From Hugenholtzia roseola DSM 9546 (GTDB lineage: Bacteria; Bacteroidota; Bacteroidia; Cytophagales; Bernardetiaceae), in NCBI RefSeq assembly GCF_000422585.1, contig NZ_KE383880.1, positions 128,001 to 189,298 on the forward strand: a DNA stretch of 61,298 nt, given 5' to 3'. The translations under genes and the position numbers were made by a program. The notes below the pieces were generated by a model. It had not been told where the DNA came from and made no database searches. It saw only the letters and a program-made list of their open reading frames with translations. This document shows, piece by piece, positions 4,408 through 47,520 of this stretch; the stretch's first letter is position 1; the number at the start of each line of letters is the position of its first letter.

Positions 4408-6495
4408 CTACCATTTCAGACCCAAAATCAAAACGTCATCTATTTGGGCTTCGCCGCCCTGCTCACGCCAACTTTCGAAGGCTTGGTCTAAAAGGTGGGC
4501 TTGGGTAGTGAGCTTTTCTGTCGCAATTTCCTCTAATAATTTTTTAAGCCTTGCGATACCAAATTTTCGGTTGTTTTCGCCCCCAAATTGGTCTTGAAAG
4601 CCGTCGGAAAGGAGATAGAAAACAGTGGGCGAAGTCGTATCGATGCTTTTTTTGGTAAAAAGGCGTTCCTGCTCGCGCTGCTCGCCGCCGATAGGCATCT
4701 TGTCGCCTTTGAGCAAATGCAGCCCTGTATGATTGAAATAGAGAAGCGGATTTTTAGCTCCTGCAAATTCTATTTTTTGGGTCAGGGTATCTATGACTAT
4801 CAGACTCAAATCCATGCCGTCGCGATTGGCAGTATGAGCCTGTTGGAGAGCCTCTCGCACGCCTTTGTGGAGGGCGTTGAGAATCAGGTCGGGGCTTGTT
4901 TGGCGGTCTTGACGGACAATTTTGTGTAAAATTTCGTTGCCCAAAACGGTCATGAAAGCCCCCGAAACGCCATGTCCTGTGCAATCTATGGCGGCAACGA
5001 CGATTTTTTCGCCTACTTTTTCTACAAAATAAAAATCGCCTGAAACGATGTCGCGCGGCTTGAAAAGGATAAAAAATTCGGGCAATAGGCTTTCAATGGC
5101 TTCTCTTTTGGGCAGAAAAGCCTCCTGAATCCGTCTTGCGTAGTTGATGTTTTGCGTAATGTGCAGGTTTTGTTCTTCTAAGGCGCGTTTCTGTATTTGC
5201 AACTCTTGGGTGCGCTGCTCTACTTTTTCTTCCAAAACCAAATTTTGCTGGGCTATGATGCGGCGATTTTCCTCCGCAATCACTAATTTTTCGCGCTCGG
5301 CTTCTTTGCTGCGATAGCCCAAACCCAACGAAAAAACAATCAATTCTACCAAAACGCCCACCTGCACGACAACGCCATCAGTATCAGGATTGGCACTTGA
5401 AAAAATAACTTCTTTGAGAATTGCAAAAAATAGGGGCAGCGTCATTGCCAAATAGCCCAAGACGATATAAGTTGTCAAAACTTTGCTAACTTTCCACGTT
5501 GCGCCGATAAGCACCAAGCCGCCCAAAATATCTATCAGAAAAAGAACCTGAATCCCTGCATTTTCCAAAATGAGGCGAGGCGTGTCGTGATAATACAAAA
5601 GCGCAAGCACAATCGTAAGCAGGCGAAAATAGACCCAAAAGCGAAAATAGCGATTGAGTTGGGGTCTGATTTGTGGAATGTGTAAAAAATAGCGAATAAA
5701 TTGGGTGTAAAGCAAGGTTACAAAAAGTGCTGCAAAATTGGTAAAAACAGTGAGCAAGATAGGCTCTTCCCAAACAAAAAGAAAGGTATCTTCAAGCCCA
5801 ACGATTGCCATGCCCAAGATATAAAATGCGTAGTAAAAATAAGCCTTGTCGCGGACAATAAAAAAGAAGAAAAGATTATAGAAAAACATCAGCAGAAAAG
5901 CTCCCCGAAAAAATAGCTGTCGTCCTCGCTGTTGCGCTTGTTGTGCCAGAGCCACTTCGGGAATTTGAACGATAAAGCCTTCATTTTCAAGGTCTTGATA
6001 CGAATTTCGCGCCCTTAAAAGAAGCGTAAGGGTATCGGCAGCAGGAATTTCGAGCAACAGGGCAGGCGATTTGTCTTGCCAATTTCGCTTGGAAAGTGGC
6101 ACGTGCAGCCCCGTTTGGAGCGATTGCAAAACCTTTTGTTTGCTATCAAAAAGTAGGGCTTCGAGGCTATCAAAAGGGGGAACGGTGAGCAGATAGCGCG
6201 TTTGGGTAGGGTTTTGGTTGAGGAGTTTGATTTTAAAAAAATAAGAAACACGCGGTTTGAAGTGGGCAGGCAGGGTTTGATTTTTTGCCCAAAGGGAATC
6301 CTGCAAAAAATAGGCAGGCGAAAAATCTTGTAGCGCGGTGCTTTCATAAAAGGCTACCCAATCGGGCGCAAGCCGTTTTTCTAAGGGTGCATTTTTTTCT
6401 AAAATTAGCGTTTTTTCTTGCGCCCAAAGCGCATTCGAACCTAAAAATCCTACCAAAAAAATAAAAACATTGGCTAAAAAAATGCGAAAAGCCAT
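4408..6495 (-). CDS. 7TM receptor (7TMR-DISM-like extracellular domain plus multi-pass membrane region) fused to a SpoIIE/PP2C-type serine phosphatase
   Basis: ORF 4408..6663. A signal-peptide-like Met (MAFRIFLANVFIFLVGFLGSNALWAQEK) sits at 6493-6495. There are many hydrophobic helices in the middle, then a coiled coil. The C-terminus carries NINYARRIQEAFLP, DIVSGDFYF and AAIDCTGHGVSGAFM, hallmarks of the SpoIIE/PP2C phosphatase domain. Confidence 0.8.
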   Translation of the reverse strand: MAFRIFLANVFIFLVGFLGSNALWAQEKTLILEKNAPLEKRLAPDWVAFYESTALQDFSPAYFLQDSLWAKNQTLPAHFKPRVSYFFKIKLLNQNPTQTRYLLTVPPFDSLEALLFDSKQKVLQSLQTGLHVPLSKRNWQDKSPALLLEIPAADTLTLLLRARNSYQDLENEGFIVQIPEVALAQQAQQRGRQLFFRGAFLLMFFYNLFFFFIVRDKAYFYYAFYILGMAIVGLEDTFLFVWEEPILLTVFTNFAALFVTLLYTQFIRYFLHIPQIRPQLNRYFRFWVYFRLLTIVLALLYYHDTPRLILENAGIQVLFLIDILGGLVLIGATWKVSKVLTTYIVLGYLAMTLPLFFAILKEVIFSSANPDTDGVVVQVGVLVELIVFSLGLGYRSKEAEREKLVIAEENRRIIAQQNLVLEEKVEQRTQELQIQKRALEEQNLHITQNINYARRIQEAFLPKREAIESLLPEFFILFKPRDIVSGDFYFVEKVGEKIVVAAIDCTGHGVSGAFMTVLGNEILHKIVRQDRQTSPDLILNALHKGVREALQQAHTANRDGMDLSLIVIDTLTQKIEFAGAKNPLLYFNHTGLHLLKGDKMPIGGEQREQERLFTKKSIDTTSPTVFYLLSDGFQDQFGGENNRKFGIARLKKLLEEIATEKLTTQAHLLDQAFESWREQGGEAQIDDVLILGLKW

Positions 6496-6659
6496 TTCAG
6501 ACACAAACTTTTTGGTATCTAAAAAATGGCTTCTCTGAAAATAGCTCTCCTGCCGCATGCGCTTTATTTGTTGTCTTTTTTTGTTTTGTAAAAAACGCAA
6601 GGTAGCCATCTTTCGCTGCAAAAGCAAATTTGCGGCATCGAGGATTTTCCAACAGCTTT

Positions 6660-7319
6660 TCAAAAATCTTTGCCTTGCGAAAAATAATCTGCTCCCCCTT
6701 CCTGCGGCTCTATGGCGATAAGACGCGCCAAGGTCATCTTGACCAAAATGGCGGAGGCTTCGGGTATGGAAATGGCGGCAAGTTTGGCGAAATTTTCTAC
6801 ATTGATGCGCTTATGACTCCCCAAATATTTGAGTAGCCACTGCTCTTTTTCGCCATAATTGACAAAGGTATCTTTGGGATTGCTTTCGGCTTTCAAAATC
6901 TTGCGCATCTCACGACTGGCTTGTAGGCTTTTATCCAAACTGCGAATGTAGGCGCGACCGATTTTGCCCTTCGAGTCGTGCAAGAGAAAGACGGGCTTTT
7001 GGGTGTGGGGTTTGATGTCGAAGACCAAGACCTCTTTTCCCTCTGTGCGCGGCACTTCGATTCGATGGAGTTGGTATTCTATCTGCGGCTTGCAAAACTT
7101 TTGCAGGGTAGTGGCAAGTGCGTAAAGTTCCTCGTCGGGGTGTTTGAGTCCATTGATAGTGCCATCATCGGAAACGCCAATAATAAGTTTGCCACCTTTG
7201 GTATTGGCAAAGGCAACGGCTTCACGCGCAATTTTATGCGGATAATAGACTTTGCGTTTAAATTCTATTTCCAAACCTTCGCCTTGTGCAACAAAACGGC
7301 GTAGTTCTTTGAAGGTCAT
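6660..7319 (-). CDS. AlbA_2 (divergent AAA-4 / Schlafen-like) putative DNA-binding domain protein
   Basis: N-terminal ELRRFVAQGEGLEIEFKRKV...REAVAFANTKGGKLIIGVSDDGTINGL is the typical AlbA_2 motif set. Confidence 0.55.
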   Translation of the reverse strand: MTFKELRRFVAQGEGLEIEFKRKVYYPHKIAREAVAFANTKGGKLIIGVSDDGTINGLKHPDEELYALATTLQKFCKPQIEYQLHRIEVPRTEGKEVLVFDIKPHTQKPVFLLHDSKGKIGRAYIRSLDKSLQASREMRKILKAESNPKDTFVNYGEKEQWLLKYLGSHKRINVENFAKLAAISIPEASAILVKMTLARLIAIEPQEGGADYFSQGKDF

Positions 7320-7381
7320 GGGTGCAAAGGATTTGAGTGGGCAAAAGGGCGATACCGAAGTAGTCTTTTTTAGGTAGGGGC

Positions 7382-8355: not shown

Positions 8356-10347
8356 TTGGCTTTCCGAAAAGCCTTTTCAAACTATTCATCTTTTGTCTTC
8401 TCTCTCATGACGCGCATCAAGCCCTCGATTTTGGAACTATTGGAAAAGGAAGAGTCCATTTTTTTGAAAATGGATAAATATACGGAGGTGAAAGAAATCA
8501 TCACAACCGACCCCCTTTTCAAAGCCACCTCTTGGGCAGGCTACCGCTTTTTGGCGCAAATGCCCCCTGAATTAGAGCCTATTATCGCCGAATTGGTCTT
8601 CAAGACCATACAAAAGCAAACCCTACAAAGCCTCACACTCAACCAGACGCTGCACCCTTTGTTGCCTTTTTCTATCAAAATTAAGTTCTTTCCTACCGAT
8701 AAAAATACCATAGGCGCAACCCTAACACGATACAAAGAAGATTATATCGCCACTAAATTTTACGAGCGCGTGCCTGTCATGACGCTTTATCTAAATGAAA
8801 CCGACGAGGTAATTTGGGCAAATCAGCAGTTTTATAGGAAAGCAGCCTTCGAGCCTACGCAACTTATTTCAGAAAATGCACGTGATTTTTTGAAAATAAA
8901 TCCCAAAATCTTACAACATGATGCCTTAGCCATCAAAGAGCCGCACCTGCGCACAGAATACAAACTTTTAAAAGGCGATGGAGGCTTTTTGCACGTTATC
9001 CTGACGGCAACGCGCCAATACGACGACGAAGGGCGATTTATTTGTACGGTAGTGGTTTTGCGCGATATTACCGAAATGAAGCTCACCCAAATAGAATTAG
9101 AGTACCAAAAACTTTCTATTGATGAGGCGGCGATTGTGGCGGCTACTGATGCAAAAGGCGATATTATTTATGTCAATAACAAATTTTGTAAGATATCGAA
9201 ATATTCGCGCGAAGAACTGATTGGGCAAAATCACCGCTTGCTCAAATCGGGCTATCATGAGCCTTCTTTTTTTGTAGAGATGTGGAAAACTATCGCTTCG
9301 GGCAAGGTCTGGCGCGGCGAAGTCTGCAACAAAGCCAAAGACGGTTCGCTATATTGGGTCTATACGACGATTATCCCCTTTTTAGACGAAAAAGGAAAGC
9401 CCTACCGCTATCAGTCTATCCGCTTCGAAATTACGAAAAGAAAAGAATTAGAGGACGAAATCAAACACTATACCGAGCATCTGGAAGAAGTAGTAGAGGA
9501 GCGCACACAGGAATTAAAGTTCAAAAGCGATTTGCTTTTTGAAATGAATGAAGAACTGCTGTCGCAAAACGAAAGATTAGAAACTAAAAATAAGTACATT
9601 CAACAAAGCATCAACTATGCCCAACGCATACAAGATGCGATTTTACCCAAAGAGGCACATCTGCCTGCTTTTGTCAAAGATTACTTCCTGCTTTATCAGC
9701 CAAAGGACATTGTTTCGGGCGATTTTTATTGGTGGTATCAAGATGCAGAAACACAGCGTTTTGTGTGGGTCATTGCCGACTGCACAGGGCATGGCGTACC
9801 CGGTGCTTTTATGTCTATGATTGGCATGACGCTTTTAGATGAAATTGTCAAGACCAAAAATATCTTTGCGCCTGCCGAAATTCTCAATCAGATGCGCGTA
9901 GAAATTGGGCGAGCCTTGCAGCAGGATATTACACAAAATCGCGACGGCATGGATATGAGCGTAGTCTGTTTTGAGGGAAAGACCCAAAAAATCCACTTTG
10001 CAGGAGCGCGAAACCCCATTTTATTGATTCAACAAGGGCGTTCTTATTGGCTAAAAGGCGATAAAATGAGCATTGGAGGCAGACTGGTGCGCAACGAACC
10101 TTTCCAAGAACAGACCTTTGATTGGCTCGAAGACACACAAATCTATGCCTTTTCAGATGGCTACGCCGACCAGTTCGGCGGCGAAGACCTGCGCAAATTT
10201 TTGAGTGCCAATTTCCGTAGCCTGCTTCTTTCGCAAGCGCACCTCCCTATGAGCGAACAGAAAGCCGCTATCCAAGCCGCCCACAAAGCATGGAAAGCAG
10301 GGCAAGACCAAATCGACGACATCTTAGTGATGGGCTTGCGGGTGTGA
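8356..10347 (+). CDS. PAS/PAC sensor fused to a SpoIIE/PP2C-type serine phosphatase
   Basis: Two PAS-like blocks (for example IIYVNNKFCKISKYSREELIGQNHRLLKSGYH...GEVCNKAKDGSLYWVYTTIIPFLDEKGKPYRYQSIRFEITKRK). Then a coiled coil, then SINYAQRIQDAILP, DIVSGDFYWW, ADCTGHGVPGAFMSMIG and SDGYADQFGG. The start is ambiguous between 8356, 8407 and 8470. Confidence 0.8.
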   Translation: MAFRKAFSNYSSFVFSLMTRIKPSILELLEKEESIFLKMDKYTEVKEIITTDPLFKATSWAGYRFLAQMPPELEPIIAELVFKTIQKQTLQSLTLNQTLHPLLPFSIKIKFFPTDKNTIGATLTRYKEDYIATKFYERVPVMTLYLNETDEVIWANQQFYRKAAFEPTQLISENARDFLKINPKILQHDALAIKEPHLRTEYKLLKGDGGFLHVILTATRQYDDEGRFICTVVVLRDITEMKLTQIELEYQKLSIDEAAIVAATDAKGDIIYVNNKFCKISKYSREELIGQNHRLLKSGYHEPSFFVEMWKTIASGKVWRGEVCNKAKDGSLYWVYTTIIPFLDEKGKPYRYQSIRFEITKRKELEDEIKHYTEHLEEVVEERTQELKFKSDLLFEMNEELLSQNERLETKNKYIQQSINYAQRIQDAILPKEAHLPAFVKDYFLLYQPKDIVSGDFYWWYQDAETQRFVWVIADCTGHGVPGAFMSMIGMTLLDEIVKTKNIFAPAEILNQMRVEIGRALQQDITQNRDGMDMSVVCFEGKTQKIHFAGARNPILLIQQGRSYWLKGDKMSIGGRLVRNEPFQEQTFDWLEDTQIYAFSDGYADQFGGEDLRKFLSANFRSLLLSQAHLPMSEQKAAIQAAHKAWKAGQDQIDDILVMGLRV

Positions 10348-10530
10348 GGAGGGAGTTTGTAAATGGTTTATGCCACAAAAATTTTCTTTGCTTTTTTCTA
10401 AAAGCCTTGTGAGGTGATGCCAAACCTTGCGAGGTTTTTACTTTTTCAGACAGGAAGGATTTTCTAAAAATTTCCTCTACTAACAAGTACACAAAAAAAG
10501 TGCCTTGTAGCAAGCTACAAGGCACTTTTG

Positions 10531-10615
10531 CAGAGAGAGAGGGATTCGAACCCCCGGTACCTTTCAGTACAACGGTTTTCAAGACCGCCGCTTTAAACCA
10601 CTCAGCCATCTCTCT
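10531..10615 (-). tRNA. tRNA-Ser (anticodon UGA) with a long variable arm
   Basis: Reverse complement reads AGAGAGA-TG-GCTGAGTGGTTTAAAGC-G-GCGGT CTTGAAA ACCGT-TGTACTGAAAGGTACC-GGGGG TTCGAAT CCCTC-TCTCTCT-G. It has a 7-bp acceptor, 3-bp D-stem, anticodon loop CTTGAAA, 16-nt variable arm and T-loop TTCGAAT. Confidence 0.8.
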
Positions 10616-10953
10616 ATTTTTATAGAAGGCAAACAAGTTGCTTAAATCGCATTGCCTACAAACTTTTGAAGTGTTATAGGTCTTTTTTGTTTTCAAGTCC
10701 TTTTGTCTTGAATTGTGATGCAAAGGTAGAGCTTTTTTCAATGCCTGTCAAGTCTTGGGGGCTTTTTTTTTGAAAAATTTTACAAAAAAATCACAACCTA
10801 CTCATTTTCAAGGATTTTCTTTATGTTAAGAAATGATGAACACAAAAAAAGTACGGCTGCGGTTTTTATCTGCCCGAAAAGAACTTGTAAGGAGCGAAAA
10901 ACTTTCCGACCTTTGTCCTACCTTTGCTCGCCTTTATTTCTAAATTTGCCACT

Positions 10954-18626: not shown

Positions 18627-19194
18627 AGATTTTTTAGAATAGATTGGGTAGGTTTCGTAGTGGGGAGCAGAGGGGCGGCAAATTTTCTTCTGCCAACATT
18701 TAGTACGCGAAGGAACTAAGCAGAAAACTTATATCAGAATTGCGTTTCTTTGTAACGAAAAACCCTTTATAGAGTTGGGTCGGAGCTGCATTTTGTCCCG
18801 CTTTCGGCGACAAAAAAGAAGGGTCTATGCCTTCAAATAGGCTTATGAAAAGCCTTTCCTCTTTTCTACTGCTGCAAATATGATACAGAATCGCGGTTTT
18901 TTATGAAAATTTGAAGAAAGAAAATAAAAAAACTCGAAAAGGCGCGTGCTTTTTGGTGGGAAATGCGGAAATAAGGGAAGAATGTAGTGCCTTTGAAGCG
19001 ATTTGGGTCGGAAGTAGTAATTTTTGAGAATCGTAAAGAAGAAGAATATCCGCTATTGGAAGGGTAAGATACGCAAAAAAACAGCGTCTTTCCCTACCAT
19101 AACTAAAAAAGGCGAAAAATAGGTTTTTTATTTTTGAAAAAAGCCCAAAAACAGAATTTAGGCACAAATAAAAAGCCTTACACAAAATTTTATA

Positions 19195-19292
19195 CCAAAG
19201 ACTAAGAGCCAACCCTAATTACTATCAACATAACATCATCTATTTATTTGAGGTTTCCTTTTCAATTTTCTAAGTCTGCTGCAAGTTTTGTG
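19195..19292 (-). pseudogene. decayed remnant of the 3' end of a SpoIIE/PP2C sensor gene, paralogous to 20900-20990
   Basis: About 85% nucleotide identity to 20899-20990 (the C-terminal coding end of the 1165-aa phosphatase). Its reverse complement encodes ...QNLQQT*KIEKETSNK*MM...DDVMLIVIRVGS*, aligning with ...QNLQQTLENWKGNLKQIDDITLIGIRIDP*. Two in-frame stops are present. Confidence 0.5.
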
Positions 19293-19564: not shown

Positions 19565-20413
19565 ATGGAAAACGAAAAACCTAATCAAAAAGAACAAAAT
19601 CTTTACGATAAAATTTTAAAGGAAAATATCTTATCGTATGTCTTACAATTTTCAGAAAAACAGTTGGGATTTCGCATCAAAAAGCACGCTTTATTAAAAG
19701 ATAAATTACAAACTACCTTAGAACGAGAGGCGGATTTTCTAATTTTTATCACCACCCAAGACGAAAAAGAATTTATCCTACAATTAGAGTTTCAAGCAAG
19801 AGATGAACCTAATATGGTGCTTCGTATGCAAGAATATCATGCCATTTTACAAAAAAAATACCAAATACCTGTTATTCAAATCGTTTATTACTTAGGCGAA
19901 ACGCCCAGCAATATGCGTGCTACCCTTGCGCCATCAGAGGTTTTCACAGGCTTTCAATTAAAATCTTTTAGAGATTATTCCTACAAAGAGTTTATCGAAT
20001 CTGAAAATGCCGAAGAGGTCATTATGGCAGTTTTGGCGGATTTCGAAAAGGAAAAGCAGGAAGAAGTGATTAGTAAAATTTTATTCCGCCTTTCGCAACT
20101 AAAAACAGATATTACTGCGTTAAATAAGTATGTCAAGCAGTTGCTTGTTTTGGCGCGTTTGCGCAATAAACTTCCAAAAATCATTCAAAACCAATTAGGC
20201 AATATGGGAACGATAGGATACGACATCGAAAAAGATGACTTTTATTTGCAAGGCTTAGAAAAGGGCAAAATAGAAGGTGAACGCGCTGGCGAGTTGAAGG
20301 CTCGTCATGAATTAGCGATTTCTTGCTTACAAGATGGGCTTTCTGTGGAGAAAACTGCTAAACTTACAAAATTATCCATCGAGGAAGTTCGGAAGTTGAG
20401 TAAAGAGTTGTAA
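19565..20413 (+). CDS. Rpn-family (YhgA-like) PD-(D/E)XK recombination-promoting nuclease / putative transposase
   Basis: N-terminal ...LEREADFLIFITTQDEKEFILQLEFQ... carries a D...E-x-Q core as in YhgA/Rpn nucleases. The C-terminal tail has GLEKGKIEGE repeats and an HTH-like end LSVEKTAKLTKLSIEEVRKL. Confidence 0.75.
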   Translation: MENEKPNQKEQNLYDKILKENILSYVLQFSEKQLGFRIKKHALLKDKLQTTLEREADFLIFITTQDEKEFILQLEFQARDEPNMVLRMQEYHAILQKKYQIPVIQIVYYLGETPSNMRATLAPSEVFTGFQLKSFRDYSYKEFIESENAEEVIMAVLADFEKEKQEEVISKILFRLSQLKTDITALNKYVKQLLVLARLRNKLPKIIQNQLGNMGTIGYDIEKDDFYLQGLEKGKIEGERAGELKARHELAISCLQDGLSVEKTAKLTKLSIEEVRKLSKEL

Positions 20414-20899: not shown

Positions 20900-23800
20900 C
20901 TAAGGGTCAATCCTAATTCCTATCAAGGTAATATCATCTATTTGTTTGAGATTTCCCTTCCAATTTTCCAAAGTCTGCTGCAAGTTTTGTTTTTGCGCCT
21001 CTGTTGGCAGTAGAGGCAAAGTAGTGAGTAGATTTTTCAGGTTTGTTACCATAAACTTGCGCCCTCGCTCGCCGCCAAATTGGTCTTGGAAACCGTCAGT
21101 AAGAAGGTAGAAAAAAGTAGGCACTTGAATACTGCCCTGATGTAGCTCAAATTGGCGCGGTTTGTCCTTTTCCAACTGCCCTTGCTGCCCACCGATAGCC
21201 CTTTTCGTACCTTTAAGAATTTGTAGCGTAGGGGTTTGCTCGGCTTCGAGTGGCAAAAAATAAAGCGGATTCATCGCTCCTGCATAAGAAAAGGCAGAAT
21301 AACGCGGTCTTTGAGGTTCAAAATTCGCACTTTTTTCCAATGTTAGCACGACAATGTCCATGCCGTCGCGCACCTGTGAATCTTTTTGTTTGAGTGCTTC
21401 CATAATGCCCTGATGCAGTTGTGTCAGGATTTGAGCAGGCTCGATTATCTTTTCTAAATTGATAATTTTATTTAAAAGTTCGTTTCCTATCATAGACATA
21501 AAAGCACCGGGTACGCCATGCCCTGTGCAATCAGCAACGGCGATAAGTGTATGATTTTCAAGCTCTTGCAAGAAATAAAAATCACCTGAAACGATGTCTT
21601 TGGGCTGATATAAAATAAAGAAGTTTTCCTTTCCAAATGCCTTTTCGAAGCGGCTTTCGAAGGGCAAAATTGCCTCTTGTATGCGTTTGGCGTAATTGAT
21701 GCTGGCAGTGATGTTGTTATTTTTTTCTTCGAGGTCGTCTTTTTGTAGATTGACTAAATCTAAGGTTTGTCGCATTTCCTCATTAAGCTGTTTGAGATTT
21801 TCAGCCTGCACTTCTATTTCTTCTTTTTGCTGCTCTAATTCTAAATTTTTGAGTTGAATTTCCTCTGTTCTTTCCTTAACAAGGCGTTCCAAACGCAGCT
21901 TTGAAGCACGCAGGCGATAGGTATAAGCACGCACAAAGGCATAAAGAAGCCCAAATCCGAGCAATAAGAAAAGTCCATACGCCCACAAACGACGATACCA
22001 AGGCGGTGCAATCGTAAAAGCAACTTTTGTAGGCAAACTTTCTATTTTCTGGCTATTTCGCGCCTGCACCCAAAAAGTATAGTGTCCTTCGGGCAAGTTG
22101 GTGTATTCCTTGCGCCTTTGCTCTGTCCAATCCGACCAAGTTTCTTCATAACCTTCCAACCAATAGCGATAACGATTTTGGTCTTCCTGATAAAAAGAAG
22201 GCGCGGCATAGGTAAAAACAAGCGCATTGAAGCGGTAAGGTAGTTCGAAGGGAGCGATTTGACCACCACTTTCACCTCCAAACAGTAGGCTATCGCGATA
22301 CGCCAAACTGACTTTGCGAATCAAAGTCTGATAAGGGACAGACTTGCCCAAATCGTGTTCGGGTTTGTAGCGAAAAACGCCCAGTGCGGTAGCAAACCAA
22401 AATGTAGGCGATTCGGATTGAGTATCGTAATAAAAGCGCGAAAGATAGTCGGGCAGAGGTGCAAGGGTAAGGGTATCTTGTACCCAAGTGTCGGCTTGAT
22501 TGCCCTGCCCTTTTGTAGGCACTTGTTCAGATTTGAACAACAAAGTCTTAGCCGAGGGCATCACCCAGTAGGAGGGCTTCGAATCGGCGATTTCTTGCAA
22601 AGGCAATAGATAAGGATAGGCAAAACGCGGATTCTGCCAATCCAGACCCCAAGGATTGTAAGACTTAAAAGATTGACTTTTTTCATCAAAAGTATAAATA
22701 CCTGATGCAGTAGAAAAAAGAATTTGGTTCTGCCAAGCGATAATTTTACAACTCTCTATTTTTTCCAAGCCCTTTGTATGGAGTTGTACCTTTGCTGTTT
22801 CTACGCCTTTTTTTGAACCTCTATCTTCCTGAAAATCAATAGAATAGAAACCTTCCTTAGGCGACCCCACCCACACTCTACCATCTGCCTGCTCCTGCAC
22901 AGAGCGCGAAATGACCTGCTCGAAGGCGGGAATCTTGCCCACACGCAAAAATTTATCTTCTTCTGCCTGATAGCGCAGCACCTCAAAGCCTTGATAGTTG
23001 GCTTTATAGACAATGTTGCTATCTATTTTAGAACGCCCAATCGCCATATTTGCCCATTCGCCATCTATATTTTGTGCAATTTTTTTGTTTTTGATGTAAT
23101 AAAACCCATAATTTCCACCTGCCACAATTAGGTCATCTTGAAAAGGCAGGAGCTGCCAACATTGTGTAGAAGGCAAGTTTGCTATGCGTTTGAATAGCTC
23201 TGCTTCCAGATAAAAAAGTCCATCGTTGGCGGAAACATATAAGGTTTGGTCGGCACTACGACAAATATCTGTCGTATAACTTTTCAAATTTTGTGGCTCT
23301 TTGTAGGCTGTAAAAGGTAGATGAATCGCAATTTGACTCAAACCCTTATCGGTTGCTACCCAAAGTGCCTGATTTTTATCTACAAAAACATAGTTAATGC
23401 TATTACTAATTAGACCAGAAGCCTCGTCTATGTGGTACAAAGTTTTCCCTGCGGCATTAAAAATTAGCACCCCTCTATCTTTAATGCCTAATACATAAAT
23501 ATCCTCGCCTTTTTTATCCTTTAAATGCGTGGCTACATAAACGCCCCTATCTTTGAGCAAATGCTGGTCTTCGAGCGGAAAAGCACTCACTTGTTTGCTT
23601 TCAATATCATACAAAAAAAGAGAGTCTATATTAAGCGGACAAAATAAAATTTTCTTCTGACCATAAGGCAGAGCCGCACGCAGGCTTAGGCTATGCGTAA
23701 AGATGTAATGCTCGCTTTCTAAAATCCATTTTTGATTTTCGAATCGGTACAAGCCCTTGCTGGTTTCATTTTTCCAAAAACCTGTACCTACTTCAAAGAT

Positions 23801-24397
23801 GTCTATTTTATCCGTTTCTGCCTCTACCTGATGATAAGAAAAGGTGCTATCTTGGGTATGAAAAATGTAGAGCCTATCTTCGCTCGAAAAGTAAAGGTCT
23901 TTTTCTATTTGATGCACCTCGGTAATAAAGGGCGTTTTCTCGATGCTATCAGGCAGGTACGGACGTAGAGAATGGTACTGCCATTTCCCTAAGGCGTTGA
24001 TTTTGAGATAGCCAAGGTCGTCATCATTGGCGACATAAGCAAGTGTAGGGTCTTTTTTATCAAAAAGCAAATGCCGAACTACGCCCCCACCTGTCTGCAT
24101 CTGCTGCCACTCTGCACCATCATAGACGAGCAAAGCGTCGCGATTGCCTACATATAATTTGCCTTGTGCGTCTTGCGCAAGCGTCCAGAGAACGGACGAG
24201 GCTTGATAGATTTTCTTGTCATAATTCTGAATAAAAGGCGTTCCCCAGCGTAAAGTAGGAGCGAGAGTCTGCTTTGCATTTGAAAGTTCTTTTTTTTGGC
24301 TCTTTGCCTCAAATGTACAAAAAAACGCAAGCCCAAGCAAAAAAACAACTTTGAGCCAATATCTAAAAAAAATGTGTGTGAAAAAGAAAGGAGTCAT
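20900..24397 (-). CDS. sensor protein: signal peptide, two-component-regulator-propeller (Reg_prop) repeats, Y_Y_Y domain, TM helix, coiled coil, SpoIIE/PP2C phosphatase
   Basis: 1165 aa. The long N-terminal beta-propeller-like region is followed by YRYWLEGYEETWSDWTEQRRKEYTNLPEGHYTFWVQARNS (Y_Y_Y) and the TM helix WAYGLFLLLGFGLLYAFV. Then SINYAKRIQEAILP, DIVSGDFYF, ADCTGHGVPGAFMSMIG and TDGFQDQFGG. Confidence 0.8.
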   Translation of the reverse strand: MTPFFFTHIFFRYWLKVVFLLGLAFFCTFEAKSQKKELSNAKQTLAPTLRWGTPFIQNYDKKIYQASSVLWTLAQDAQGKLYVGNRDALLVYDGAEWQQMQTGGGVVRHLLFDKKDPTLAYVANDDDLGYLKINALGKWQYHSLRPYLPDSIEKTPFITEVHQIEKDLYFSSEDRLYIFHTQDSTFSYHQVEAETDKIDIFEVGTGFWKNETSKGLYRFENQKWILESEHYIFTHSLSLRAALPYGQKKILFCPLNIDSLFLYDIESKQVSAFPLEDQHLLKDRGVYVATHLKDKKGEDIYVLGIKDRGVLIFNAAGKTLYHIDEASGLISNSINYVFVDKNQALWVATDKGLSQIAIHLPFTAYKEPQNLKSYTTDICRSADQTLYVSANDGLFYLEAELFKRIANLPSTQCWQLLPFQDDLIVAGGNYGFYYIKNKKIAQNIDGEWANMAIGRSKIDSNIVYKANYQGFEVLRYQAEEDKFLRVGKIPAFEQVISRSVQEQADGRVWVGSPKEGFYSIDFQEDRGSKKGVETAKVQLHTKGLEKIESCKIIAWQNQILFSTASGIYTFDEKSQSFKSYNPWGLDWQNPRFAYPYLLPLQEIADSKPSYWVMPSAKTLLFKSEQVPTKGQGNQADTWVQDTLTLAPLPDYLSRFYYDTQSESPTFWFATALGVFRYKPEHDLGKSVPYQTLIRKVSLAYRDSLLFGGESGGQIAPFELPYRFNALVFTYAAPSFYQEDQNRYRYWLEGYEETWSDWTEQRRKEYTNLPEGHYTFWVQARNSQKIESLPTKVAFTIAPPWYRRLWAYGLFLLLGFGLLYAFVRAYTYRLRASKLRLERLVKERTEEIQLKNLELEQQKEEIEVQAENLKQLNEEMRQTLDLVNLQKDDLEEKNNNITASINYAKRIQEAILPFESRFEKAFGKENFFILYQPKDIVSGDFYFLQELENHTLIAVADCTGHGVPGAFMSMIGNELLNKIINLEKIIEPAQILTQLHQGIMEALKQKDSQVRDGMDIVVLTLEKSANFEPQRPRYSAFSYAGAMNPLYFLPLEAEQTPTLQILKGTKRAIGGQQGQLEKDKPRQFELHQGSIQVPTFFYLLTDGFQDQFGGERGRKFMVTNLKNLLTTLPLLPTEAQKQNLQQTLENWKGNLKQIDDITLIGIRIDP

Positions 24398-25883: not shown

Positions 25884-26303
25884 ATGAAAAAATTTTTTTT
25901 ATATTTAATAGCTATTTTTACGTTACTTTCTAGTAATAGTGCAAAAAACACAAGCGTGGTTTTAGACAGTAATACGCAATACTACATAAAAAAAGTAAAA
26001 AAAGTAAAAAAATGGTATATTATTTACGCAATGAAAAACAAAGTATTATATAAAATAGTTTCAAAAGATGACAATACTTTTAACAAAAACTGCAATAAAA
26101 TAACTATTGGAAAACAATATGATTTAATTTTGAAATCGCACAAAGAGTCTGCACCAGTCATTAATGGAGTTCTTATTGCTCCTGTTGGATATAGTGGATG
26201 TTATCATTTTGATAGTGAAACGACTATATGTTTAGAACCTAATAAAGATATTTATGATTTATTTTATACAAATAACTTAAAAGGAATTTGCTATGTTAAA
26301 TAA
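25884..26303 (+). CDS. hypothetical secreted/lipoprotein-like small protein, very low GC (possible orphan immunity protein)
   Basis: N-terminal signal peptide MKKFFLYLIAIFTLLSSNSA. GC is visibly far lower than the about 46% surroundings. It lies immediately upstream of, and overlaps, the RHS C-terminal fragment. Confidence 0.4.
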   Translation: MKKFFLYLIAIFTLLSSNSAKNTSVVLDSNTQYYIKKVKKVKKWYIIYAMKNKVLYKIVSKDDNTFNKNCNKITIGKQYDLILKSHKESAPVINGVLIAPVGYSGCYHFDSETTICLEPNKDIYDLFYTNNLKGICYVK

Positions 26304-26787
26304 AAACTTCTGGCAATACAACGGCAAGGAGAAGGAGACGTTTTTGGGGCTGCACCTCACCGACTACGGCTGGCGACAACAAGACCCACAACTTTGTAGG
26401 TTTTGGGGTATAAACCCGCTGGCAGAGAAGTATTACAGCCTCACGCCCTTTGCCTATGTAGCCAATAATCCTATCAATGCGATTGACCCTGATGGGAGGG
26501 AGATAACCTACACTTTTTCTGAAGATATGACAGGTGAAGAAAAAATGGAATTTTTACAAGGTCTTTCTAAATTATACGAAGATTCTAATACTTTTCAAAC
26601 AATGTTTGATGATTTAGCTTCTTCCAAACATGAACATAAAATACAAATATTTGGATATAACTCAAAAGACGTAAACAACCGCGAACATACGACTAACCCT
26701 GATGACAAAATTGGTAGGGGTAGCCAGATGAACTTGGGGCTTGGTGGCTCCCCCGTTGTCCGCAGTGTTCCCATAACCAAAGAATAA
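26293..26787 (+). CDS. orphan RHS-repeat-associated core C-terminal fragment plus variable C-terminal (putative toxin) domain
   Basis: NFWQYNGKEKETFLGLHLTDYGWRQQDPQLCRFWGINPLAEKYYSLTPFAYVANNPINAIDPDGRE is the conserved RHS/YD core end (NGKEKD...YDYGARxYDPxLGRF...DPL...Y.YV.NNP...DPDG). Beyond it lies a divergent, AT-rich 95-aa tail. There is no upstream RHS repeat body. Confidence 0.7.
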   Translation: MLNKNFWQYNGKEKETFLGLHLTDYGWRQQDPQLCRFWGINPLAEKYYSLTPFAYVANNPINAIDPDGREITYTFSEDMTGEEKMEFLQGLSKLYEDSNTFQTMFDDLASSKHEHKIQIFGYNSKDVNNREHTTNPDDKIGRGSQMNLGLGGSPVVRSVPITKE

Positions 26788-26959: not shown

Positions 26960-27187
26960 CTACAACATCTTCTTGATAAGGGCAAGCAAGTTTTTTTTAA
27001 GTGTTTGCTTGTCCGTTTTAGAAATTGAATCAGGAATAAGCGATAGTAAAGACCCAAATTCTTCTACTATTGATTTTCCTTCTTGTGTTAGTAGGTCTTG
27101 ACCTTCTTTGACTTTATTCTTTTTACTTGACTTCAAAAAAGAAATAAAAGACTCTACATTCTCAAAAAAAGGAGCTTCTTCCTTCAT
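26960..27187 (-). CDS. small hypothetical protein (weak call)
   Basis: ORF 26960..27310. Its 5' part is encoded by the IR-b copy, so the likely start is the internal Met at 27187. No family was recognised. Confidence 0.25.
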   Translation of the reverse strand: MKEEAPFFENVESFISFLKSSKKNKVKEGQDLLTQEGKSIVEEFGSLLSLIPDSISKTDKQTLKKNLLALIKKML

Positions 27188-27242
27188 TTGTGCCAAGTTT
27201 TGAATTTGTGTTTTTGTAACACTCACACGACCTCTTAAAATC

Positions 27243-27294
27243 CCTATCAGTGCGGCAAATCTTAGATTTGCGTTGTAAGATACTGCAAAAATAG
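27243..27294. repeat. inverted-repeat element IR-b (copy 2, direct with 26826-26877)
   Basis: Exact 52-bp repeat of 26826-26877. Confidence 0.75.
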
Positions 27295-27424
27295 CAAAAA
27301 ACAAATACAAAATGCTATTTTTTAGATGTTTTGATAGCAGCAGCCCTGCAAAGCGAAGATTTAGTTTTATTTTTTGTATTCAGAAGACTTTGCCGAATGG
27401 GGAGTAGCAATATCAAGTCTTGCG

Positions 27425-27755: not shown

Positions 27756-28607
27756 CTATTTGGGTGCAATGACCCCTAATTTTTTCTGCAACTGATTCAA
27801 GACCTGCTTGATTTCGTCGAGCGAAGTTTCCGCCTCTGGCGTTTTTTTGCTGATGTAGGCAGCGAATTTCCAAATCTCCTTGACCTGACGCGCAGGGAGT
27901 TCGTAGGGGCGATACTGCAAGTTGGTAGATTCTAATAAAAAAGTACCCTTTTCTTTGACCTGATTATGAACTCTTTTAAAGACAATTCCCTCGTCTTGGG
28001 CTACTAAGACGCAAAATTCGCCTTCTTTCAGGTCGTTCCAATCGGCAACATACTCACCAATCACAATCGTACCCGATTCAAGCGGTAGCATCGAGTCGCC
28101 CGAAATTTCGAAGGAGCGGTAGGTGCGCTCGGCAGGGAGAAAAGGCAATTTAAACTTGGGTAGCTCTTTGATATATTCCAAATCGGCATACCCTTTGGCA
28201 TACCCTGCGGCAGCTTTCTGTGGCACTAATTCGATGTTTTCGTTGTTTAGCTCATCTACCGAAATAGCCAAAACACGCACATTTGTACCTGCTACGTAAT
28301 TCCCCACTTGTAGGCGGTGGTAGGCACTCCAATAAGGGGTATTGACTCTTTGTCGGAATTTGCGCTCCTCTAAATTTTCGTTGAGCAGTTCATCTACAGT
28401 AACTTCAAAATAATTTGCCATAGCGACAAGCGTATCGAGGCGCGGTTCGGCTCTGCCCTCCTCGTAGGAAGAATAAGCCCCGCGCGTGATGCCTAATTTA
28501 TCGGCAATGACTTCCTGACTCTTTTTGCGTGTGTTGCGGGTGCGTAAAAAGCGAAGATTATTGCTAAGATGCATAGTTTTGAAATTTTTTACTAAGGAAA
28601 TTTGCAA
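27756..28607 (-). CDS. HTH-XRE DNA-binding domain fused to an S24 (LexA/CI-like) self-cleaving peptidase domain; repressor-like
   Basis: N-terminal LRFLRTRNTRKKSQEVIADKLGITRGAYSSYEEGRAEP (HTH_3). C-terminal FEISGDSMLPLESGTIVIGEYV...FKRV, an S24 Ser-Lys dyad context. Confidence 0.8.
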   Translation of the reverse strand: MQISLVKNFKTMHLSNNLRFLRTRNTRKKSQEVIADKLGITRGAYSSYEEGRAEPRLDTLVAMANYFEVTVDELLNENLEERKFRQRVNTPYWSAYHRLQVGNYVAGTNVRVLAISVDELNNENIELVPQKAAAGYAKGYADLEYIKELPKFKLPFLPAERTYRSFEISGDSMLPLESGTIVIGEYVADWNDLKEGEFCVLVAQDEGIVFKRVHNQVKEKGTFLLESTNLQYRPYELPARQVKEIWKFAAYISKKTPEAETSLDEIKQVLNQLQKKLGVIAPK

Positions 28608-33168: not shown

Positions 33169-34407
33169 TTGTATCGTCTTTATCTTTGCCTCTTTTTTTA
33201 TTTTAAACCCTATCTATCCTCTTTGATGCGTATGCTTTTCTCTTTTGTACGATTTTGCCTCCCCCCCACTTTTCGTGTAGCGACGGTGGTCTTTTTGGGC
33301 AGCAGCCTAATAGCTTGTGGTGGCAAAGGTGAGAAAGGAGGGACTGCCCCTCTTGTTACCGATTCGGTTGTGGTGGAAAAAACAGCCCCTCTAAATGAAG
33401 ATTACAGCACTTTTGAGCCGTTGATAAACTATGCAGCCGCTCAAAATCCCGTCTTGGCTGCCGAAATTCGGAGTTTGGCAAAAAAAGTGCTAAATCCACA
33501 GCTACTCACCAATGAGCAAGATTTTGAGGTCTTTTTTGCCGAGCGCGATACCCTTTCTAATCGCCTTTCGGAAGCCCTTTCCAATTTGGAAGATGTAGAT
33601 GCTACCTTGATAATGCAACAAGATAGTGTCAAAACAATGCCTATTATCAAGGCACTTTCCGAATTAGGCATGCAGCCCACAGGTGCAGAAGGCATGTTTG
33701 GCGGACTTGTGGTCGCGCCTACACTTCTCGAACGCCTTGCAGCCGTAACCTCTGCCGAATACGTCCTCTTTCAGCAGATACGCGCCAAAGAAGGCGAATC
33801 TATTGGGGGCGAATATCCTTATTTGGGCTTGGAAGCCGAAGCCGAACTTATCCCTTTGGCAGAGCAGTATTTACGCGAATATCCTACTTCTACGCGCCTC
33901 AAAGCGGTGCGCCAGATGCTCTATCGCGCCCTAATTCCATTTATAGACTTCAACAAAGGCACTGCAACGGGCGGCGAGGATAGCTATTTTGTAGGTGGCA
34001 CTTGTTTTGAAGCCTACCCCTGCATGACCGAAATTGGGGAGCATCAGAATTTTATCAAAAACAACCCCCAATCTATTTTTACGCCCCTTATCAAAAACGC
34101 GCTCAAAAATCCTTCTACGGCAGATTTAGAAACAAATCCATTCCGCCTCCATGCGATTGTGATACGCACCGAAGCCGATTTGGAAACCGCACAAGAACGC
34201 CACCTCGATGCCCTTTTGGAAGGAAAAGATTGGCTGCACCAATTTCAATATACCTCCGCTTCGGGCAAAACCCTGCAAGCAATCGTTTATCGCGTCTTTA
34301 CAAACAAAAGCAAAGCCGAAGCCGCTCGCAAAAACCTCAATGTGGCAGATGCTAAAATTGTCGTTTTGGAGCGTGATAACGATAGTTACGAATGGGTGCA
34401 AAAATAA
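33169..34407 (+). CDS. hypothetical lipoprotein
   Basis: Signal peptide with lipobox-like SSLIACGG. 412 aa; no recognised family. Confidence 0.4.
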   Translation: MYRLYLCLFFYFKPYLSSLMRMLFSFVRFCLPPTFRVATVVFLGSSLIACGGKGEKGGTAPLVTDSVVVEKTAPLNEDYSTFEPLINYAAAQNPVLAAEIRSLAKKVLNPQLLTNEQDFEVFFAERDTLSNRLSEALSNLEDVDATLIMQQDSVKTMPIIKALSELGMQPTGAEGMFGGLVVAPTLLERLAAVTSAEYVLFQQIRAKEGESIGGEYPYLGLEAEAELIPLAEQYLREYPTSTRLKAVRQMLYRALIPFIDFNKGTATGGEDSYFVGGTCFEAYPCMTEIGEHQNFIKNNPQSIFTPLIKNALKNPSTADLETNPFRLHAIVIRTEADLETAQERHLDALLEGKDWLHQFQYTSASGKTLQAIVYRVFTNKSKAEAARKNLNVADAKIVVLERDNDSYEWVQK

Positions 34408-42739: not shown

Positions 42740-42823
42740 GAAATTAAAAATGTTTTTTTTGATTCTTCCAAAAATAACTCCCCCTTACGCCGCTTGTATC
42801 GCGCAAGCGACGCATTGAAAAAA

Positions 42824-43393: not shown

Positions 43394-43467
43394 TTGATTT
43401 TTCTGTTTTGTTTTTTCTATTTTGCAGGCACAAGCCTATCGCTTTTTCCAACAAAACTTTCTTTTTT

Positions 43468-44421: not shown

Positions 44422-44428
44422 AAAAAAG

Positions 44429-45547: not shown

Positions 45548-45582
45548 ATTTTTTGCTACAATTTGGTTTTAATCTTTTATTT

Positions 45583-47520
45583 TTATAGCTTTATTCCCAC
45601 AATCGTAACGTCGTCGCGTTGGGGTTCTTTTTGTTTATGTGCCTCGAAGAACCGCTCCAAAATTTCTTTCTGGCGGCTCAAACTCTGCCTATGCACCTGT
45701 TCGAGGGTTTGGGCAAAGCGCAGACTGCCAAATTTTTCGCGAGCCGCATTGTTTTGGTCGGCAAAACCGTCAGTGGTGAGGTAGAGGATTTCGCCCTTGC
45801 GTAGGCTCAATACTTGGTTGTTAAAAGGCTGATTTTCAGACTTTTGTCTGCCTCCGATACCGCGCTTGTCCCCTTTTAGCAAGTGGAGTTTGCCATTTTT
45901 GGTGTAATAAAGCGTGCGTTTTGCACCTGCAAAGGTAACGATTTTCTGGTCTGTGCCATCATCGATGCAACAAAGACAAATATCCATGCCGTCGCTATTT
46001 TTGCCTTCTTGTTGGTGCAATGCGTTTTTGATTTCAATATGCAGCACTTCTAAAATCATGGCAGGGTCATAAATTTTGCTCTGCCCCACAATTTTATTGA
46101 GCAAAGTATGCCCAATCATAGACATAAAAGCACCGGGTACGCCATGCCCTGTGCAATCGACAACGGCAATAAAAGTGCGCCTTTTTTTGCGAAACAACCA
46201 ATAAAAATCGCCCGACACCAATTTTTGGGGCTTGTAAATCACGAAACTATCCTCGAAAAAAGCATTTAATTCCTCCTCGGTAGGCAAAACGGCTTCTTGA
46301 ATTTGCTGCCCATAGCGGATACTATCCATAATTTTTTCTTGCGAATGAGCAATTTGGTCAGATTGAAGTTGAATTTGAGCAATATTATTTTGTACTGTTT
46401 CAAGCATTTTAGCAAAATCATTAGAGAGCCAACCTATTTCATCATTGCTTTTTACTTGTTCTAATTTAATACTTTCTGAAAAATTATTTTTAATGACTTT
46501 ATGAATAGAATTAGATAATTTTCGTACAGGTTTGCTCAAATATTGTGTAACGAAAAGACTTAGTAAAATATTAGACACAATGCAAAGCAGCACTACGCCT
46601 ATAAGCGTGAGTTTGATGCGCTCTTTAAGTGCCAAACTTTTCTCGGTCGCCTCCTTCTGAATGTGGTCTATTGATTTTTGTATCTCCAAAGAAAGCACCG
46701 AAAACTCTTGCAACAAGCCATCACCTTTTTTAAGTCCTATTTTTTCTTCATAAGTTACTAATTGAGTAAAAGTATCGCGATAACTCGTGAGCAAAGCAAT
46801 CATTTTATCGCGCTCTTCTGGATTGCGCACCGAAAGGGCAATGTCCCTTCGCAGGCTATCTACCATGACTAAAAGTTTGGCGATATAAATTTTTTCTTTT
46901 CTAATAATAAAATCTTTTTCATAACGACGAATCATTAACATTTTTTCCTTGTCGAAAGGAAAAGGCGAAGATTCTATCCGATGGATATAACGCCTCATTC
47001 TGCCCTCTACACCAAAATCTTTGAAACCGCGCAAATTGATAAGCAAAATGAGGCTATCAAAGCGCGTTTCGTAGCGCACCAAAAGCCGCCTAATGTCTGC
47101 AATATCCATCTGAATAGCCAAATTGCTAATCTCTTTTCTATTTTCTAAGGTTTGAAGTTGCTGCAAAACCTCGCGCAACCTTTTTTTGCGCTCTTTCAAA
47201 TAAGGGCTATCTCCTTTCCGATAATATTCGGGGTTGATAGTTTCATTGCTAAAAAAATCTTTTTCTAAGGATTGTATTTTTACGACATTAAAATTGATTT
47301 TTCCTACCAAGCTCATAAACTCATCTATTTCGCTGCGGCGATAGTCAAACCAAAAAGTAACCATGATGATACAGCCCATCAAAAGCAAAAAGCTAAGAAA
47401 GGTAACTTCTAATTTGAACTTTAAACTCCTAAATTTCGAGGGCGTATCAGTAGGCATGCGCTTGGGTGCATTTTTTTGCTGCAAAGGTAAAGGCTTGCTT
47501 CTATGTTTTGATTGCCTCAA
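45583..47520 (-). CDS. membrane sensor: TM1, periplasmic domain, TM2, HAMP, coiled coil, SpoIIE/PP2C phosphatase
   Basis: Two TM helices (FLSFLLLMGCIIMVTFWF and LIGVVLLCIVSNILLSLFV). HAMP-like KPVRKLSNSIHKV...DEIGWLSNDFAKML. Then IRYGQQIQEAVLP, LVSGDFYW, VDCTGHGVPGAFMSMIG and TDGFADQ. Confidence 0.8.
   Translation of the reverse strand: MRQSKHRSKPLPLQQKNAPKRMPTDTPSKFRSLKFKLEVTFLSFLLLMGCIIMVTFWFDYRRSEIDEFMSLVGKINFNVVKIQSLEKDFFSNETINPEYYRKGDSPYLKERKKRLREVLQQLQTLENRKEISNLAIQMDIADIRRLLVRYETRFDSLILLINLRGFKDFGVEGRMRRYIHRIESSPFPFDKEKMLMIRRYEKDFIIRKEKIYIAKLLVMVDSLRRDIALSVRNPEERDKMIALLTSYRDTFTQLVTYEEKIGLKKGDGLLQEFSVLSLEIQKSIDHIQKEATEKSLALKERIKLTLIGVVLLCIVSNILLSLFVTQYLSKPVRKLSNSIHKVIKNNFSESIKLEQVKSNDEIGWLSNDFAKMLETVQNNIAQIQLQSDQIAHSQEKIMDSIRYGQQIQEAVLPTEEELNAFFEDSFVIYKPQKLVSGDFYWLFRKKRRTFIAVVDCTGHGVPGAFMSMIGHTLLNKIVGQSKIYDPAMILEVLHIEIKNALHQQEGKNSDGMDICLCCIDDGTDQKIVTFAGAKRTLYYTKNGKLHLLKGDKRGIGGRQKSENQPFNNQVLSLRKGEILYLTTDGFADQNNAAREKFGSLRFAQTLEQVHRQSLSRQKEILERFFEAHKQKEPQRDDVTIVGIKL

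Follow-up and report, generated by a model that had tools for sequence, protein, structure and literature searches.

The closest described relatives of the phosphatases discussed here belong to the SiaABCD system of Pseudomonas aeruginosa, in which SiaA removes the phosphate from pT68 of SiaC, a DUF1987 protein with a STAS-like fold that is phosphorylated by SiaB, and in which unphosphorylated SiaC activates the diguanylate cyclase SiaD (PMC7647112, PMC8457831). The PP2C domain of SiaA (PDB 6K4E) crystallises as a dimer via alpha1-alpha3 and carries the strictly conserved residues D457, D474, G477, D600, G601 and D653 (PMC7647112). A 'signalling helix' has been described between diverse sensors and PP2C outputs (PMC1592074), and control through a coiled-coil linker has been described for phosphatases of the RsbU/RsbP type (PMC12143880). 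Within the literature searched, SiaABC has been studied only in P. aeruginosa. Here we describe four genes, A to D, from a 61 kb stretch of the genome of Hugenholtzia roseola, a gliding member of the Bacteroidota (Bernardetiaceae, Cytophagales); "the window" refers to that whole stretch. Each encodes a predicted sensor phosphatase of the SiaA clade, and all four probably act in trans on SiaC-type phosphoproteins of SiaB/SiaC modules encoded elsewhere in the genome.

Four sensor phosphatases related to SiaA

The initial annotation had described four PP2C paralogs with 7TMR-DISM, PAS, Reg_prop+Y_Y_Y and TM-HAMP inputs, and this was borne out by Pfam, BLASTP and the gene coordinates. All four open reading frames (ORFs) lie where they had been placed, exactly four genes in the window carry a PF07228 (SpoIIE/PP2C) domain, and a BLASTP search with the last 260 aa against all six-frame ORFs retrieved exactly A to D, at pairwise identities of 39-43%. 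The genes and their phosphatase domains are as follows.

4408..6495, minus strand: gene A, 695 aa; 7TMR-DISMED2 + 7TMR-DISM_7TM + SpoIIE (Pfam)
4411..5151, minus strand: PP2C domain of A, from junction NINYARRIQEAFLP to the C-terminus; best PDB match SiaA-PP2C 6K4E, E=5e-39
8356..10347, plus strand: gene B, 663 aa from the first TTG; two PAS + SpoIIE (Pfam)
9607..10344, plus strand: PP2C domain of B, beginning at junction SINYAQRIQDAILP
20900..24397, minus strand: gene C, 1165 aa; Reg_prop + Y_Y_Y + SpoIIE (Pfam)
20903..21703, minus strand: PP2C domain of C, beginning at junction SINYAKRIQEAILP
45583..47520, minus strand: gene D, ORF of 645 aa; HAMP (sub-threshold) + SpoIIE (Pfam)
45586..46323, minus strand: PP2C domain of D; its AlphaFold2 (AF2) model superposes on SiaA-PP2C 6K4E

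Gene A encodes a signal/transmembrane (TM) segment, a periplasmic 7TMR-DISMED2 domain at aa 85-165 (PF07696, 25 bits against a cut-off of 22) and a 7TMR-DISM 7TM region at aa 193-395 (PF07695, 80 bits), the combination that defines a 7TMR-DISM receptor, followed by an S-helix/coiled coil with VEQRTQEL at about aa 400-448 and the PP2C domain at aa 449-695. Its ORF runs on to 6663, but the plausible start is the ATG at 6495. Gene B encodes a cytoplasmic protein with no TM segment, a second PAS domain at aa 260-360, a coiled coil with VEERTQEL and a PP2C domain at aa 418-663; its true start may be a Met 17 codons inside the first TTG. The second PAS domain (9133-9435) is LOV/NifL-like (NCBIfam YtvA family, E=7e-16; NifL, E=2e-23) but reads GQNHRLLKSG where a LOV motif would contain the photoactive Cys; it is possibly a flavin/redox sensor, not a blue-light sensor. 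Protein C, whose start agrees exactly with the NCBI model (1165 aa), is 100% identical to 'triple tyrosine motif-containing protein [Hugenholtzia roseola]' from a 288-kb contig; it comprises a signal/TM segment, a periplasmic Reg_prop beta-propeller region, Y_Y_Y at aa 735-796, a single TM segment at aa 804-824, a coiled coil with VKERTEEI and the PP2C domain at aa 899-1165.

Protein D corresponds to the NCBI entry 'SpoIIE family protein phosphatase [Hugenholtzia roseola]', whose start lies 12 codons further in (633 aa). It comprises TM1 at aa 33-60, an all-helical periplasmic domain at aa ~61-295, TM2, a HAMP domain at aa 323-377 and a continuous helix from HAMP to the junction SIRYGQQIQEAVLP, followed by the PP2C domain at aa 400-645. 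The HAMP match, at 21.7 bits, is under the 25-bit Pfam cut-off and is backed by the alignment to the SiaA model and by a helix-loop-helix in the AF2 model. The periplasmic domain (46636-47340) has no Pfam match; it is conserved in Cytophagales orthologs, with invariant motifs near RGFKDxGxEGxMR and MIRRxEKDFIxRK, and is modelled as all-helical with a predicted local distance difference test score (pLDDT) mostly >90. By simple hydropathy, the sensors of A, C and D lie outside the membrane and that of B in the cytoplasm.

The junction between linker and phosphatase is conserved in all four, and the consensus first proposed for the junction and PP2C motifs fits A, B and C; D departs from it, reading SIRYGQQIQEAVLP, KLVSGDFY and DGFADQNN. 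The linkers of A, B and C, which match the signalling helix of PMC1592074, carry an (E/Q)RT(Q/E)E(L/I) signature also found in SiaA (VQERTQAL), within a charged helical segment of 50-90 residues before the junction. At about 43% identity, the paralogs are old and not tandem duplicates. On related replicons, genes of this kind occur about once every 120-160 kb (5 in 601 kb; 4 in 640 kb). A window of 61 kb with four of them is therefore enriched if taken at random, though only modestly surprising given the many windows in a genome.

By sequence, the nearest solved structure is SiaA-PP2C (6K4E, E=5e-39), the alignment running from the coiled-coil junction to the C-terminus, and RssB provided the only other PDB matches at E<=0.01. 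The top NCBIfam match of all four proteins is prot_phos_SiaA (NF038263, E 1e-50 to 1e-70), followed by RssB at about 1e-6; for D this alignment spans both HAMP and PP2C. An AF2 model was built for D only, from 41 orthologs (pLDDT 86), and has a TM helix continuous with a HAMP-like helix-loop-helix and a helix at aa 361-411 that runs into the junction motif and the PP2C fold. In a Foldseek search of the PDB with this model, SiaA-PP2C 6K4E ranked first (TM-score 0.86 normalised to the target, 36% identity, E=2e-17), ahead of RssB, tPphA, Rv1364c, SpoIIE and RsbX at 15-21% identity and E values of at least 1e-10; it leads RssB, SpoIIE and Rv1364c by seven orders of magnitude. Taken together, the sequence matches and the model of D assign the phosphatase domains of A to D to the SiaA clade of bacterial PPM/PP2C enzymes and not to the generic RsbU/SpoIIE type. 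The metal-binding Asp residues, proposed earlier as a check for pseudo-phosphatases, are in place: the SiaA active-site residues D457, D474, G477, D600, G601 and D653 are kept, six of six, in each of A, B, C and D, which are accordingly predicted to be catalytically competent sensor Ser/Thr phosphatases.

The suggestion that sensor modules were swapped onto one output agrees with the unrelated sensors found on paralogous PP2C domains, but the principle is already published (PMC1592074, PMC12143880). Likewise, a Reg_prop+Y_Y_Y input does feed a phosphatase in C, but this is not exceptional, as Bernardetia, Flammeovirga, the marine bacterium AO1-C and several metagenome-assembled genomes have the combination too, and fusions of this sensor to GGDEF, cyclase, MCP and other kinase outputs are found as well. 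A to D are conventional modular signalling proteins, in which both the sensor swapping and the Reg_prop-phosphatase fusion are recurrent and already explained in principle.

PP2C subtypes and partner genes beside relatives

An alignment of PP2C domains that included those of loci L001, L082, L085, L088 and L089 splits cleanly into two subtypes. Subtype 1 (DQ-NNxxxK(F/Y)G ... QRDD) includes D (DQ-NN...QRDD) and all PP2Cs that directly adjoin siaB in the genome loci described below. To subtype 2 (DQFGGxxxRKF ... Q(I/V)DD) belong A (DQFGG...QIDD), B and C, the ortholog of C in Bernardetia, and Flammeovirga and Bernardetia proteins of the 7TMR-DISM and other types. In a neighbour-joining tree, A to D nest among SiaB-adjacent PP2Cs, with A, B and C grouped together and D grouped with SiaB-adjacent Bernardetia proteins at 51-53% identity. 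The grouping of A, B and C would fit sensor shuffling onto one local PP2C lineage.

No STAS or RsbW-like partner-switch gene adjoins any of the four genes, as first reported, and Pfam searches of the ORFs extended this to the whole 61 kb: neither the ~47 other window ORFs of at least 100 aa nor the 42 small intergenic ORFs contained STAS, HATPase_c_2, DUF1987 (PF09345) or DUF6272 (PF19788). The STAS/RsbW pair originally sought is thus absent, but since the phosphatase domains fall in the SiaA clade, partners of the SiaC (DUF1987) and SiaB (DUF6272) type are likelier than this classical pair. As candidates for a hidden partner, the ORFs at 10268-10741, 18901-19212, 19565-20413, 25884-26303, 26293-26787, 26960-27310, 33169-34407, 47848-48090, 57560-58228, 58401-58739, 60242-60847 and 60903-61238 were rejected, with hhalign probabilities all <1%; the first of these (157 aa) is spurious and overlaps a tRNA-Ser. 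An extracytoplasmic function (ECF) sigma factor gene at 58693-59358, with a possible downstream anti-sigma gene, was also rejected as a partner, since it lies 11 kb away from D and represents another type of regulation.

Partner genes were found beside relatives of A to D. In plasmid and chromid records searched with tblastn, Azospirillum has an operon of HAMP-PP2C, SiaB, SiaC, histidine kinase and diguanylate cyclase genes, and Persicobacter (Cytophagales) one of TPR-PP2C, SiaB and DUF1987 genes. Bernardetia sp. Wsw4-3y2, from the same family as the window organism, has a stand-alone SiaB + DUF1987 pair on a replicon with five PP2C genes. We also scanned a genome collection using a SiaB alignment and two peptide patterns typical of Bernardetiaceae SiaB. 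In the best 80 of the 367 siaB loci obtained, SiaC lies downstream in about 65, and a clade PP2C is present in 28, directly adjoining in about 20. In Bernardetia sp. OM2101 (L067), a Reg_prop+Y_Y_Y(+GAF)-PP2C gene is directly upstream of SiaB; in L060, a Reg_prop+Y_Y_Y-PP2C gene is followed by GAF-PAS-PP2C and then SiaB; and in L085, SiaB is followed by Reg_prop+Y_Y_Y+PAS-PP2C. Marine bacterium AO1-C (L035) has a 7TMR-DISMED2+7TM-PP2C gene upstream of SiaB-SiaC, and a closely related PP2C of similar length occupies, by homology, the same position in Microscilla (L044). An RR-PAS-GAF-PAS-PP2C gene stands with SiaB-SiaC in L041, and L082 holds one co-directional cluster of SiaB-SiaC-SiaB-SiaC, a subtype-2 TPR-PP2C and an SBP+Reg_prop+Y_Y_Y-PP2C. 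Three of the sensor types in the window (7TMR-DISM, PAS and Reg_prop+Y_Y_Y) are therefore seen on clade PP2Cs beside siaB, usually with siaC, in Cytophagales and metagenomes; the HAMP type was seen next to siaB-siaC only in the Azospirillum operon. In Bernardetia OM2101, the PP2C+SiaB unit has no adjoining SiaC and two other SiaB-SiaC pairs stand alone; the components must therefore work in trans in this family.

In a metagenome scan anchored on subtype 2, adjacent or divergent siaB and/or siaC genes were found in L125, L115, L110, L167 and L099 (in L099 siaC only), and among 120 immediate neighbours of subtype-2 PP2Cs the only recurrent partner-switch family was DUF6272, with STAS and HATPase_c_2 each having <3 members. 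Subtype 2 is thus linked to SiaB/SiaC too, but less often. No partner-switch gene was seen in five ortholog contexts (two from Pfam lists, three from product names at NCBI): those of the C ortholog in Bernardetia (L001), the D ortholog in B. litoralis (L002), a Flammeovirga Reg_prop-PP2C (L005), a subtype-2 gene on a Bernardetia plasmid (L088) and a Flammeovirga 7TMR-DISM-PP2C (L089). The orphan state is thus normal for the Cytophagales family and not peculiar to the window.

Several further features of the SiaB/SiaC genes were observed. SiaC proteins of Cytophagales share a conserved phospho-acceptor motif, (Y/F)(L/F)NT(S/A)S. Single proteins of ~303-314 aa carry both DUF6272 (SiaB) and DUF1987 (SiaC), a fused kinase and substrate (P0165, P0166, P0188-P0190), and tandem siaB-siaC duplicates share one gene cluster in L021, L027, L036, L078 and L082, with L036 having one siaB and two siaC. 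A histidine kinase gene directly follows siaC in L062, L066, L068, L069, L071, L074 and L078 (Chloroflexota, Cloacimonadota and other non-Bacteroidota), as in the Azospirillum operon (L004), an arrangement that hints at kinases, and not cyclases, as possible targets of SiaC-type proteins. The histidine kinase was rejected as a conserved output, since it lies directly downstream of siaC only in non-Bacteroidota loci.

Proposed mechanism and alternatives

We propose that in each protein a long signalling helix (coiled coil) connects the PP2C domain to an input module, which in A to D is, respectively, a periplasmic DISMED2 domain with a 7TM region, a cytoplasmic tandem PAS, a periplasmic beta-propeller with Y_Y_Y, and a periplasmic helical bundle with HAMP. 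The analogy with SiaA and RsbU predicts dimers, in which a signal-dependent change of the linker would govern the alpha1/alpha2 switch and the binding of metal by the PP2C domain, and so turn the phosphatase on or off. Regulation via a dimeric linker is suggested here on grounds of homology, namely the shared linker signature, the signalling helix and the SiaA-PP2C dimer. The most likely substrates would be one or a few STAS-like proteins of the SiaC type (DUF1987), from whose phospho-threonine the phosphatases would remove the phosphate added by kinases of the SiaB type (DUF6272). With SiaB and SiaC encoded elsewhere in the genome, several environmental inputs would converge in trans on a small partner-switch hub; we favour action in trans because orphans make up most of the family and siaB-siaC pairs are often found on their own.

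Several points weigh against this proposal. No SiaB or SiaC was found in the window with profile HMMs (hidden Markov models) derived from 70-90 SiaB and SiaC sequences, or when each unannotated ORF was compared by hhalign. H. roseola and B. litoralis were absent from the 27 protein matches, for which a concatenated Bernardetia SiaB+SiaC query probably weakened the collection of candidates, and from the best 80 of 367 genome loci of the SiaB scan. Both searches were limited by word or pattern matching, and the patterns of the scan would overlook divergent SiaBs, that of Persicobacter for example; the two absences therefore count as weak evidence, though they leave some room for another substrate. 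SiaB and/or SiaC occurred in just 8 of the 80 loci in the subtype-2 scan, and 72 (~90%) had neither in the available flanks. The Arg at SiaA position R652, proposed from simulation to contact the pT68 phosphate of SiaC, is kept in D, but is Ile in A, B and C and Ile or Val across subtype 2, and the loop that carries F612 in SiaA differs in A, B and C. The scores of A to D against NF038263, at 171-239 bits, do not reach the 700-bit equivalog cut-off, and because they are so far under it, the four are clade relatives of SiaA and not SiaA orthologs. The PP2C tree was computed by neighbour joining, without support values. Finally, the literature searched yielded no biochemical data on Bacteroidota members. 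The same literature had nothing relevant on Bacteroidetes partner switching, on DUF1987 outside Pseudomonas or on H. roseola signalling.

Some of these points would also be expected if A, B and C at least, as subtype-2 enzymes, acted on a different, undescribed class of substrate, with the change of R652 to Ile/Val and the DQFGG...RKF loop marking a clade that has departed from SiaB/SiaC. The clean separation of the subtypes, the restriction of directly siaB-adjacent PP2Cs in the genome loci to subtype 1, the 72 of 80 partnerless subtype-2 loci and the absence of both H. roseola and B. litoralis from the SiaB lists all speak for such a departure. We nevertheless hold it to be unlikely: subtype-2 PP2Cs adjoin or share a cluster with siaB and/or siaC in L082, L110, L115, L125 and L167 (in L099 with siaC only), small proteins of no other kind recurred among the neighbours, and many of the metagenome contigs are too short to reveal partners. 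A broader form of this idea, in which either H. roseola (perhaps also B. litoralis) has no SiaB/SiaC despite its several SiaA-clade phosphatases or the subtype-2 domains of A, B and C serve a new substrate, is also improbable. Either way, the expanded sensor phosphatases of Cytophagales would then form a Ser/Thr network with unknown targets and no cyclic di-GMP output.

Alternatively, A to D could take part in classical partner switching, acting on STAS anti-sigma-factor antagonists (RsbV/SpoIIAA-like) whose genes, like those for the RsbW-like kinases and the sigma factor paired with them, would lie in other parts of the genome. The PF07228 domain is indeed common to RsbU, RsbP and SpoIIE, and in the sigma-B system of Bacillus subtilis several phosphatases are known to converge on a single antagonist. 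SiaC itself is structurally STAS-like (PMC8457831), which makes cross-family substrates conceivable. Against this stand the 15-21% identity of the structurally known STAS-directed phosphatases SpoIIE, Rv1364c and RsbX, which were undetected by sequence at E<=0.01, and the lack of STAS or HATPase_c_2 genes in the window, in the five ortholog contexts (annotated or Pfam-listed) and, at <3 each, among the 120 immediate neighbours of related PP2Cs; we regard this arrangement as quite unlikely. Much less plausible still is that the four are catalytically dead adaptors or pseudo-phosphatases that signal by binding, like Escherichia coli RssB. P. aeruginosa RssB is the second-best match by both sequence and structure, but the identity to RssB is 17-20%, compared with 35-36% for the active enzyme SiaA, and the metal-binding Asp and Gly residues are all retained in each of the four.

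The kinship of A to D with SiaA redirects the search for their substrates to DUF1987/DUF6272 (SiaC/SiaB) pairs, beyond STAS/RsbW alone. The distribution of partner genes suggests that the SiaABC module is widely used in Cytophagales and other phyla, with many sensors feeding few hubs and outputs other than the SiaD cyclase. The many-sensors-to-few-hubs layout is a testable hypothesis on environmental sensing in gliding Bacteroidota; the remaining interest of the window lies in the Cytophagales SiaB/SiaC network and the divergent subtype-2 domain.

Genomic surroundings and comparison with known systems

Per Pfam, the remaining window genes are housekeeping and cell-envelope genes. They include those for ribosomal proteins L22, S19, L2, L23, L4 and L3, aspartate kinase, an ArsA-type ATPase, CoaBC, a type IX secretion system cargo protein with PorP/SprF, an M16 peptidase, AnmK, LD-carboxypeptidase, RecF, UppP, MatE, restriction-modification methylases, the ECF sigma factor and one tRNA-Ser. 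A Schlafen AlbA_2 domain protein (6660-7319, minus strand) and a phosphoribosyltransferase gene lie between A and B, and the tRNA-Ser (10530-10615, minus strand; anticodon TGA) is immediately downstream of B. Between 24000 and 28700, GC content drops to 0.36-0.37, compared with 0.42-0.47 in the remaining window; this stretch holds an RHS-associated core fragment (26293-26787), small unknown ORFs (25884-26303 and 26960-27310) and a LexA/CI-like repressor with helix-turn-helix and S24 peptidase domains (27756-28607), and is possibly a toxin or mobile-element remnant. The restriction-modification genes (53101-54684 and 56050-57666) encode an N6_N4 DNA methylase fused to an Mrr_cat nuclease domain and, on the opposite strand, an Eco57I-like methylase. 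The ECF sigma factor gene (58693-59358, minus strand; within the region 58401-59358) is followed by a 112-aa ORF with a weak anti-sigma family match (E=0.009) and a 222-aa unknown ORF; the sigma gene and the ORF that follows it are probably a sigma/anti-sigma pair unconnected to the phosphatases.

Among known systems, SiaA of P. aeruginosa SiaABCD (PDB 6K4E; PMC7647112, PMC8457831) is the best match in sequence, profile and fold, with PP2C domains 29-36% identical to those of A to D. The junction motif (D/N)Y(A)xxIQxA(I/F)LP is common to SiaA and all four proteins, and the ERT-containing signalling helix to SiaA and A, B and C, but not D. D in turn has the whole SiaA architecture of periplasmic domain, TM, HAMP and PP2C, whereas A, B and C bear other sensors, Ile in place of R652 and an altered alpha5-alpha6 loop. 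Unlike in P. aeruginosa, no siaB, siaC or siaD adjoins A to D. A SiaD-like output is unlikely, as the best 80 of 367 loci have, near siaB-siaC, no diguanylate cyclase resembling that of the Azospirillum operon (the sole cyclase probe).

The comparison with RsbU, RsbP and SpoIIE (PMC12143880) is more distant. The SpoIIE domain of Pfam and the order of N-terminal sensor, helical linker and PP2C are shared, dimeric regulation through the linker and switch helices would be expected in A to D as well, and here too several sensors may feed one antagonist. In contrast, identity is as low as 15-21%, A to D lack an RsbT-binding N-domain and have no STAS/RsbW neighbours, and their relatives are linked to DUF1987/DUF6272. 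Gene C has the same periplasmic Reg_prop propeller, Y_Y_Y and single-TM input as the hybrid two-component systems of Bacteroidota, but no HisKA, HATPase_c, receiver or AraC domain, its output being PP2C (Pfam: Reg_prop, Y_Y_Y and SpoIIE only). Gene A, with DISMED2, 7TMR-DISM_7TM, an S-helix and an intracellular output, has the standard architecture of 7TMR-DISM receptors, and PP2C is among the listed outputs of S-helix proteins (PMC1592074); architectures orthologous to that of A adjoin siaB-siaC in AO1-C and Microscilla.

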